This document shows, piece after piece, positions 33,709 through 34,928 of a DNA stretch of 64,000 bases. The translations under genes were made by a program, and so were the position numbers. Location of the stretch: NCBI RefSeq assembly GCF_003334785.1, contig NZ_QOWV01000001.1; one strand, 5' to 3'. Within the stretch, counting starts at the first letter, position 1. Each line of letters begins with the position of its first letter. Source of the stretch: Escherichia coli. GTDB taxonomy: Bacteria > Pseudomonadota > Gammaproteobacteria > Enterobacterales > Enterobacteriaceae. Below the pieces are notes generated by a model. The model ran no database searches and was not told where the DNA came from. It saw only the letters and a list, made by a program, of their open reading frames with translations.

Positions 33709-33748
33709 AAAAGCCGCATGTGCGGCTTCAGATTGCTGACAAAGTGCG

Positions 33749-33847
33749 CGTTGTTTATGCCGGATGCGGCGTAAACGCCTTATCCGGCCTACAAAAGCGT
33801 GCAAATTCAATACATTGCATGGGCCATGTAGGCCTGATAAGCGTAGC
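33749..33847. repeat. Pair of REP (repetitive extragenic palindrome) elements between rlmC and artJ
   Basis: gccggatgcggcgtaaacgccttatccggcctaca and tgtaggcctgataagcgtagcgcatcaggca match the E. coli REP consensus by recall. Confidence 0.65.
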
Positions 33848-33906
33848 GCATCAGGCAATTTTACCTTTGTCATCAGTCTCAAGCCGCGGTTGCGGCTTTC
33901 TGAATC

Positions 33907-34638
33907 TTACTGTGGGAACCACTGGTCACTGATTTTTTGATAAGTACCGTCAGCTTTAATTGCTGCCAGCGCGTTATTCAGTTTTTCCAGCAGGGCTTTG
34001 TTATCCGGACGTACAGCGATGCCCAGGCCGGTGCCAAAATATTGCGGATCGGTCACTTTCTCAGTAGCAACACCAAGTTGTGGATTGGTTTTCAGCCATT
34101 CGTTTACCACCGCTGTGTCACCAAATACCCCATCAATACGACCATTTTTCAGATCGATAAAGGCATTCTGATAACTGTCATAAGAGACAGTTTTCACTTC
34201 CGGGTGCTGATCCTGAATATATTTCTGGTGCGTAGTACCGTTTTCCATCCCAATACGTTTGCCTTTCAGATCGGCAAACGTTTTGTAGGTATCTTTTTTG
34301 GCAATCACGACGGCTGAGTTTTCATAGTAGGGCGTGGTAAACGATACCTGTTTGCTACGCTCCGGGGTGATATCCATACCGGAGATTACGGCGTCATATT
34401 TTCTGAATTTCAGGGACGGGATCAGGCTGTCGAACGCGTGATTAGTAAAAGTACATTCTGCCTGCATTTGTTTGCACAAGGCTTTTGCCAGATCGATATC
34501 AAAGCCGACAATCTCATTATTAGCACCTATAGATTCAAAGGGTGGATAGGTGGCTGAAACGCCAAAATTGATTTTCTCTGCGGCAGAAGCACCGAAAGTA
34601 AAGGAAGCAAGTAAAGCGGCAAGAACTAACTTTTTCAT
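33907..34638 (-). CDS. artJ: Arginine ABC transporter periplasmic binding protein ArtJ
   Basis: ORF trimmed to MKKLVLAALLASFTFGASA (243 aa); paralogue of artI in this window. Confidence 0.9.
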   Translation of the reverse strand: MKKLVLAALLASFTFGASAAEKINFGVSATYPPFESIGANNEIVGFDIDLAKALCKQMQAECTFTNHAFDSLIPSLKFRKYDAVISGMDITPERSKQVSFTTPYYENSAVVIAKKDTYKTFADLKGKRIGMENGTTHQKYIQDQHPEVKTVSYDSYQNAFIDLKNGRIDGVFGDTAVVNEWLKTNPQLGVATEKVTDPQYFGTGLGIAVRPDNKALLEKLNNALAAIKADGTYQKISDQWFPQ

Positions 34639-34753
34639 GATGGAACTCCCGTCTGTCAATCTTATGATTTTTGGCCGTGTCTGCGGCATGGGATAACAAT
34701 GCCATCAAGTGAATTTATATGCAATAAACATGATTAAATAATTTAAATGAAAT

Positions 34754-34787
34754 AAAAAAGACGGACAACTTAGTGGGTTGTCCGTCT
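34754..34787 (-). terminator. Rho-independent terminator of the artPIQM operon
   Basis: 11-bp stem agacggacaac/gttgtccgtct with 7-nt loop; on the minus strand followed by tttttt. Confidence 0.6.
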
Positions 34788-34810
34788 TCATTATAAGAAT
34801 TTATGCACTA

Positions 34811-34899
34811 TGTAGGCCGGATAAGGCGTCCCCGCCGCATCCGGCACAGGCACCGTGCTGATGTCTGATGCGACGCTGGCGCGTCTTATCAGACCTACA
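34811..34899. repeat. Pair of REP elements between artM and artJ
   Basis: tgtaggccggataaggcgtccccgccgcatccggca and tgatgcgacgctggcgcgtcttatcagacctaca. Confidence 0.65.
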
Positions 34900-34928
34900 A
34901 AACCCCCCGGCGAATGTACGCAGCCACA

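Follow-up and report, generated by a model that had tools for sequence, protein, structure and literature searches.

The gene artJ of Escherichia coli, which encodes an arginine-binding periplasmic protein, lies downstream of the artPIQM operon in the same orientation and is accompanied on both sides by a pair of repetitive extragenic palindromic (REP) sequences. Our analysis of this locus, in a 64,000-nucleotide stretch of E. coli DNA (contig NZ_QOWV01000001.1; hereafter the window), indicates that artJ is very probably made an independent, ArgR-repressed, monocistronic unit by two intrinsic terminators and not by the REPs, which would be passengers in 3′ untranslated regions (3′UTRs). On this reading, one terminator delimits the gene at the end of artPIQM and the other at its own 3′ end. 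The two-unit organization, the promoters, and the repeats of the K-12 art locus are already established, and a first description made from the letters of the window (the sequence-only reading) rightly called them normal features; the arrangement is known and ordinary in K-12. The 1901 nt around artJ are 100% identical to E. coli K-12 MG1655, and a window position equals the NC_000913.3 position minus 865937.

Transcript boundaries of artJ

The separateness of artJ is supported by full-length reads. In the SMRT-Cappable-seq data (PMC6131387), artJ (b0860) is a single-gene operon that starts at 900626 (window 34689) and ends at 899643 (window 33706); 100 reads begin at 900626, of which 23 stop at 899643 and 5 run past it. 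The genes artP-artI-artQ-artM (b0864|b0863|b0862|b0861) form a separate operon with starts at 903769 and 903843, both scored as the "same" as in RegulonDB. The sequence-only reading had proposed that artJ is transcribed separately from artPIQM and had named frequent read-through from artM into artJ as the result that would overturn this. The operon calls, the start of artJ's own, and the separate promoters all support the proposal, and read-through was not seen in the SMRT-Cappable-seq operon tables (PMC6131387), because they list no extended artPIQM–artJ variant and, in M9 as in rich medium, show artM in a single transcriptional context.

The features that define the two units are as follows.

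34748–34789, minus strand: intrinsic terminator at the end of artPIQM; 13-bp stem 34789→34757 with a 7-nt loop, then UUUUUUAUUU
33703–33729, minus strand: intrinsic terminator of artJ, bidirectional with convergent rlmC; stem 33729→33710, then UUUUUUAUU, the U-tract overlapping the rlmC stop codon
33881–33898, no strand assigned: second copy of the terminator-hairpin stem, AAGCCGC-GGTT-GCGGCTT, 8 nt past the artJ stop, both a direct and an inverted repeat
34689–34725, minus strand: artJ promoter region; transcription start at 34689, other elements predicted from sequence
33907–34638, minus strand: artJ coding sequence (annotation and translation), 243 aa
34929–35597, minus strand: artM coding sequence (annotation), last gene of artPIQM
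32581–33708, plus strand: rlmC (annotation), stop codon at 33706–33708

The upstream boundary lies in the 290-nt gap between artM and artJ. Read along the minus strand, the artM stop is followed by 30 nt, a z2 REP (34898→34862), a 15-nt linker, a y REP (34846→34812), another 22 nt, the hairpin with its U-tract, about 25 nt of AT-rich DNA, and the artJ promoter. This order bears out the claim that a terminator lies between the upstream REP pair and the artJ promoter, and the position first given for it, 34754–34787, falls within 2–3 nt of the measured stem. The element has the form of an intrinsic terminator, namely a GC-rich stem-loop followed by a U-tract (U6) past the last gene of an operon, with the U-tract finishing about 25 nt short of the predicted artJ −35 element. 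Its RNA folds with −21.1 kcal/mol (z = −7.4), and none of 200 shuffled sequences folded as well. Beyond artM, the window continues with artQ, artI, and artP.

Conservation of this terminator was assessed in 80 Enterobacteriaceae loci, which were collected with an ArtJ scan taking one genome per species. The gene artM adjoins artJ upstream in about 77 of the 80, and a hairpin with a U-tract lies approximately 110–125 nt before the artJ ATG in about 70 of those 77. In an alignment of 69 terminators, 81% of cells are paired, and 8 of the 12 base pairs show changes on both sides. Double-change cells numbered 103, compared with 43.7 ± 4.7 in shuffles (none of 500 as high), and the covariation score was 0.314, compared with 0.085–0.165 when the pairing partners were slid. 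The artM–artJ terminator is an ancient, conserved boundary element, and the REPs are lineage-specific and polymorphic.

The downstream boundary has been mapped by two methods. Past the artJ stop, the minus strand runs through 8 nt, the second hairpin copy (33898→33881), and a REP pair of the BIME-1 type (z1 REP 33857→33828, linker, y REP 33792→33758), and then reaches the hairpin 33729→33710, whose U-tract leads into the rlmC stop codon. This terminator, an 8-bp GC-rich stem with a U6 run, folds with −13.5 kcal/mol (z = −3.6). Term-seq places the 3′ end of the RNA at 33707, where the U6 run finishes, and SMRT-Cappable-seq places it one nucleotide farther on, at 33706. The Term-seq end (Adams et al., PMC7815308), at 899644 on the minus strand, was found only in arginine-free M63 minimal medium, in line with derepression of artJ; the same study classes it merely as "antisense to rlmC." For transcripts of artJ, the hairpin beside the artJ stop is followed by no U-tract; in the rlmC direction, a weak one (UUUCUGAAUCUU) follows it. 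From the mapped start and 3′ end, it follows that the 3′UTR of the artJ mRNA is 200 nt long and includes BIME-1 in full, and that the mRNA ends at the rlmC-side hairpin, rather than at the hairpin without a U-tract next to the artJ stop. The statement that REP pairs bracket artJ is correct as to position, but the downstream pair does not delimit the transcript, since it lies inside the artJ 3′UTR. As a lesson for annotation, a REP pair past a gene need not mark the end of its transcript, because the artJ mRNA runs 200 nt beyond the stop codon and into that of rlmC.

Several observations weigh against terminators as the boundaries of artJ. The tables of Adams et al. (PMC7815308) list no 3′ end near the artM–artJ terminator (~900.68 Mb), and for RNAs begun at the artP starts no end is given in SMRT-Cappable-seq (PMC6131387), so that of the ends proposed for mapping, that of artJ is placed at 33706/33707 and none is listed for artPIQM at 34748–34789. 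The limited depth of SMRT-Cappable-seq leaves room for low-level read-through into artJ, and just 23 of 100 artJ reads stop exactly at the mapped end. RegulonDB annotates the artJ terminator as Rho-dependent (per Yan et al. 2018), contrary to its sequence, which reads as a canonical intrinsic terminator. A minority of genera (L062, L075, and Atlantibacter) have no canonical hairpin with a U-tract. From structure, conservation, and the operon calls, we infer that the artM–artJ terminator is used in vivo and that artPIQM transcripts end at about 34750. On the plus strand, the Term-seq tables (PMC7815308) list no 3′ end after rlmC.

The promoter evidence agrees with two units. Separate sigma-70 promoters, both repressed by ArgR, have been reported for artJ and artPIQM (Torres Montaguth et al., PMC6640053), and Lrp acts only on PartP, with approximately 3-fold repression, leaving artJ unaffected (PMC6640053). 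The putative artJ elements are an extended −10 (TGgCATTGT, hexamer 34701→34696) and a −35 (TTGCAT, 34724→34719), the latter overlapped by an ARG-box-like 18-mer, ATTGCATATAAATTCACT (34725→34708). The promoter region is highly conserved in other genera. A scan with the sigma-70 consensus missed the real artJ promoter. The artJ 5′UTR (34639–34689, 50 nt) also shows strong conservation between genera. Within it are a small GCCG...CGGC hairpin, a segment rich in C and A, and ATTGACAGACGGGAG, which reaches the ribosome-binding site; the 5′UTR might be a site of post-transcriptional control.

Taken together, these data are consistent with the following mechanism. Polymerase leaving artPIQM would be stopped by the hairpin and U-tract at 34789→34748, about 25 nt before the artJ −35, and the artJ RNA, initiated at 34689, crosses the rlmC–artJ spacer with its BIME-1 and stops at the bidirectional hairpin (33706/33707). 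The two REP pairs are ordinary members of their families and would have been inserted into the artPIQM and artJ 3′UTRs in the Escherichia lineage. They would not be needed for the operon boundary and would act at most as RNA hairpins that slow 3′ exonucleases or attenuate transcription, or as DNA sites for integration host factor (IHF; BIME-1) and gyrase (BIME-2). Any quantitative effect of the REPs at the art locus we likewise infer.

REP elements and their variation

REPs are the commonest repeat of the E. coli K-12 genome, and four copies are present here, all of them in the two intergenic regions next to artJ. The REP tail motif CTTATCMGGCCTAC, searched with up to 2 mismatches, has exactly 4 matches in the window, all in the rlmC–artJ and artM–artJ regions, whereas 0.54 are expected from shuffles and 1 of 100 shuffles reaches 4. 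The 36-nt z2 consensus has a single match, at 34863–34898, with 0 expected. Alignment of the copies, which had been suggested as a check, gave 22 columns without variation, the GATGCG and CTTATC..CCTAC blocks among them. All four are imperfect palindromes of the REP kind (~30–37 nt with a GTAG/CTAC foot) that carry GATGCG...CTTATC..CCTAC and fold as hairpins; all four are intergenic, and their segments recur with a median of at least 40 per E. coli genome. The RefSeq annotation of MG1655 lists no REP features. The pair first placed at 33749–33847 is real, but its end was cut 10 nt short, as the z1 REP runs to 33857; the pair placed at 34811–34899 was accurate. Under the published family definitions (PMC3333891), the pairs are a BIME-1 and a BIME-2.

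33726–33883, no strand assigned: BIME-1 (RIP/RIB-type) with imperfect inverted ends CTTCAGATTG...CAGTCTCAAG, between rlmC and artJ, inside the artJ 3′UTR
33758–33792, plus strand: y REP of BIME-1 (motif scan, alignment)
33793–33827, no strand assigned: L linker of BIME-1, 35 nt, with an IHF-like site ATTCAATACATTG at 33805–33817
33828–33857, minus strand: z1 REP of BIME-1 (motif scan, alignment)
34812–34898, no strand assigned: BIME-2, single unit in the artPIQM 3′UTR, y and z2 head to head, the REP stem 30 nt past the artM stop
34812–34846, minus strand: y REP of BIME-2 (motif scan, alignment)
34847–34861, no strand assigned: S linker of BIME-2, 15 nt
34862–34898, plus strand: z2 REP of BIME-2 (z2 consensus match)

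The rlmC–artJ element has the inverted y and z1 REPs and the long L linker with an IHF consensus that characterize BIME-1, an assignment supported by alignment to five other copies; it aligns end to end (~155 nt) with those at tkt, pitA-uspB, fepA-entD, and yvcK-uvrB. The predicted IHF site in the linker agrees with WATCAANNNNTTR at 12 of 13 positions. The artM–artJ element has the y and z2 REPs with the short S linker of BIME-2 and matches the Rfam naRNA4 model (75.5 bits). Only one unit is present in K-12, and not the tandem multicopy array of the family, and two units are found in a related Escherichia sp. (L017). On the transcribed strand, BIME-2 folds with −49 kcal/mol and BIME-1 with −47 kcal/mol.

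Both elements vary within the species. Of 5426 complete E. coli genomes, 3410 carry the z2 REP segment and about 37% lack it. The z2-less allele, found for example in strain EC21Z-151, is 65 nt shorter, lacking the z2 REP and linkers within 34847–34928, and keeps just one REP ahead of the terminator. Every E. coli artM–artJ allele sampled has the terminator and the y REP. At least four alleles of the rlmC–artJ spacer occur in E. coli. The K-12-type allele of 198 nt occurs in ~1700 genomes, and an empty allele of 28 nt, which is one hairpin, AAAAAAGCCGCAGGTGCGGCTTTCTGAATC, is found in CFT073, ST131, and CE10 and in roughly 1400–1750 genomes; BIME-1 is absent here from a quarter to a third of E. 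coli genomes. These counts are only bracketed, as BLAST pieces were joined and other BIME-1 copies compete as the best match. A third form, of 174 nt in strain 2013C-4361, has BIME-1 without the artJ-proximal hairpin (33881–33898), and the same arrangement is seen in L013, L014 (E. albertii), and L015. In O157:H7, a sulfatase gene takes the place of rlmC beside artJ.

Most genera have an artM–artJ spacer of 150–190 nt in which the terminator follows artM without any intervening element. REPs occur there in three lineages only: Escherichia, Salmonella (degenerate copies), and the Citrobacter freundii complex (a different arrangement). Because our first REP regular expression overlooked degenerate REP-like pairs in Salmonella and Citrobacter, the absence of REPs is valid only for the short 150–190-nt spacers. 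Within Escherichia, E. coli and E. albertii have y and z2 in different orders, and a tandem duplication is present in L017. The REPs appear dispensable for the boundary, because the genera with short REP-less spacers and the z2-less and BIME-1-less E. coli alleles all keep the terminator architecture.

Some loci depart from this plan. The automatic terminator picker took a REP for the terminator in L058 and L066 and picked none in L017, L050, L062, and L075; inspection of these loci revealed degraded U-tracts or other palindromic repeats. Between artM and the artJ promoter, Enterobacter sp. kpr-6 (L075:1698–2000) and Franconibacter helveticus (L062:1791–2000) hold, in place of the canonical structure, 1–3 copies of another palindromic repeat, CCCTCTCCC...GGGAGAGGG. 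In Escherichia sp. MOD1-EC7003 (L017:1578–2000), the spacer is 423 nt long, the tandem duplication includes the last artM codons and the y–z2 REP pair, and the terminator U-tract is degraded to UUUCCUCAUC.

Hairpins flanking BIME-1

The rlmC–artJ spacer of Citrobacter and Kosakonia is 33–43 nt long and consists of one bidirectional hairpin, with its U-tract directly against the rlmC stop, and Enterobacter sp. L054 has a similar single-hairpin spacer of 47 nt. From these spacers, it follows that the hairpin at 33710–33729 is the ancient terminator and BIME-1 the Escherichia addition. In K-12, BIME-1 sits between two copies of the local hairpin stem (33710–33729 and 33881–33898), and because the hairpin is doubled around it, the artJ and rlmC 3′UTRs would overlap by ~200 nt. 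The spacer as a whole (33700–33912) is a near-palindrome of ~200 nt that can form a single long hairpin (art strand, −95 kcal/mol, z = −8.4); because of this, the convergent 3′UTRs would be fully complementary over the spacer.

Other BIME-1 copies are flanked likewise, each by its own locus-specific hairpin. A z1-REP scan of metagenome contigs yielded 16 distinct typical BIME-1 sites, and in eight of them the 15–27 nt just outside both ends form a direct repeat that comprises a GC hairpin.

L008, L009, L102, L108, L109, L118, L140, L144: BIME-1 loci with a hairpin direct repeat (flank scoring)

The direct-repeat scores at these eight sites were 10.5–23, compared with a mean of 5.1, a 99th percentile of 8, and a maximum of 9 in a control of mismatched left and right flanks. 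The direct score exceeded the inverted score at 7 of the 8; at rlmC–artJ, the inverted score was slightly higher. Natural E. coli alleles without BIME-1 keep exactly one hairpin at rlmC–artJ, tsx-yajD, and fbp-DUF2569.

These patterns could reflect a BIME-1 that moves, or once moved, by integrating at the foot of intrinsic-terminator hairpins and duplicating the whole hairpin, a tentative idea that we rate at slightly under even. The repeat length of 15–27 nt, which tracks stem length, suggests that the extent of the duplication is set by structure. Alternatively, precise excision between two hairpin copies would leave the single-hairpin alleles. If integration is correct, a structure-defined duplication would point to a hairpin-recognizing nuclease such as the REP-associated Y1 transposase, and insertion would convert one bidirectional terminator into a symmetric pair, as at K-12 rlmC–artJ. 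The duplicated hairpins and single-hairpin empty alleles bear on how REPs and BIMEs spread and why they gather at gene ends. Our literature search found no described target duplication for BIME-1, but the key BIME papers of the 1990s were outside its reach, so the pattern may be described already.

Alternative explanations and comparison with known systems

The REP pairs could themselves be the insulators, with BIME-2 attenuating or terminating artPIQM in a Rho-assisted manner and BIME-1 acting as a bidirectional terminator for artJ and rlmC. The REP325 array of BIME-2 units is indeed a partly Rho-dependent terminator and stabilizer, REPs between tandem genes accompany upstream-biased expression (preprint 10.64898/2026.03.23.713779), and the hairpins at this locus are very stable on the transcribed strand, as given above. 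However, artJ transcripts cross BIME-1 and end 45 nt beyond it, the REPs have no U-tracts, and the terminator is kept where z2 or all REPs are missing, that is, in ~37% of E. coli and in most other genera, respectively, which makes this explanation unlikely. A role in tuning the decay of artM and artJ mRNA by blocking 3′ exonucleases would be an addition to the terminator model and is possible, though doubtful. It would fit the position of both pairs within mapped or predicted 3′UTRs, upstream of a terminator, and the general stabilizer role of REPs summarized in PMC6061677; yet because a terminator hairpin already stands at the extreme 3′ end, they would be no more than a second line, and their presence/absence polymorphism in E. 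coli speaks against a strongly selected role. General work on REPs (PMC6061677; preprint 10.64898/2026.03.23.713779) describes context-dependent terminator and stabilizer effects and no global effect on half-life.

It is very improbable that artPIQMJ is one operon in which a substantial share of transcripts continues from artM into artJ and the hairpin, as a partial attenuator, sets the ArtI:ArtJ ratio. The genes do share an orientation across a gap of only 290 nt, intrinsic terminators are rarely 100% efficient, and the Term-seq tables hold no 3′ end at the artM–artJ hairpin. Against this, the full-length read tables contain no artPIQM–artJ transcript and a single context for artM in two media, artJ has its own start and escapes the Lrp repression of PartP, and the hairpin is strong (13 bp and U6) and conserved. 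Least credible of all is a naRNA4-type nucleoid-associated RNA encoded by BIME-2. The Rfam model naRNA4 (CssrE, RF02564) does match 34815–34895 on the plus strand above its gathering score of 59.5, but this strand is antisense to the art genes and the art-sense strand scores 43.7 bits, below the threshold; moreover, the family was built from a REP array, so any y–z2 pair matches it, and the nucleoid-compaction role of naRNA4 itself is disputed. The Rfam model ES036 (CssrF) matches the BIME-1 linker (33793–33835) with 42.2 bits, also above its gathering score. Both were rejected as gene calls, as both models are built from REP/BIME sequence, and because the matches are just a BIME-2 unit and a BIME-1 linker, the models will flag many REP loci as small RNA genes.

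The explanation by two terminators changes little for the art locus itself: coordinates are tidied, the terminator becomes the conserved boundary, and the repeats become recent and dispensable additions. In hisJQMP and malEFG, operons for periplasmic-binding-protein transport that are the classical cases of REPs as stabilizers, the REPs are internal to the operon and work with no terminator. In the art locus, REPs likewise come after a gene from an ABC-transporter cluster, between units that differ in expression level; at artM–artJ, however, the terminator and a separate promoter do the work. Compared with BIME-2 elements such as REP325/naRNA4, the artM–artJ copy has the same head-to-head y and z2 REPs, the same 15-nt linker, and the Rfam naRNA4 match, and it shows the expansion and contraction between strains and species that is typical of BIME-2. 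Its z2 stem differs from the BIME-2 norm by the paired changes GCC→GTC and GGC→GAC. Whereas REP325 is a tandem array within an operon, the artM–artJ copy is one unit followed by a true intrinsic terminator. The rlmC–artJ element shares with BIME-1 (RIP/RIB) the tail-to-tail y and z1 REPs, the 35-nt L linker with ATTCAATACATTG, and its occurrence as a single copy at convergent 3′ ends; there is no essential difference, apart from its setting in K-12 between two copies of the local terminator hairpin. Finally, like bidirectional terminators between other convergent genes, the BIME-free allele and the spacers of other genera consist of one GC hairpin with A-tract and T-tract flanks that fills 28–47 nt, whereas K-12 has this hairpin twice, with BIME-1 in between.

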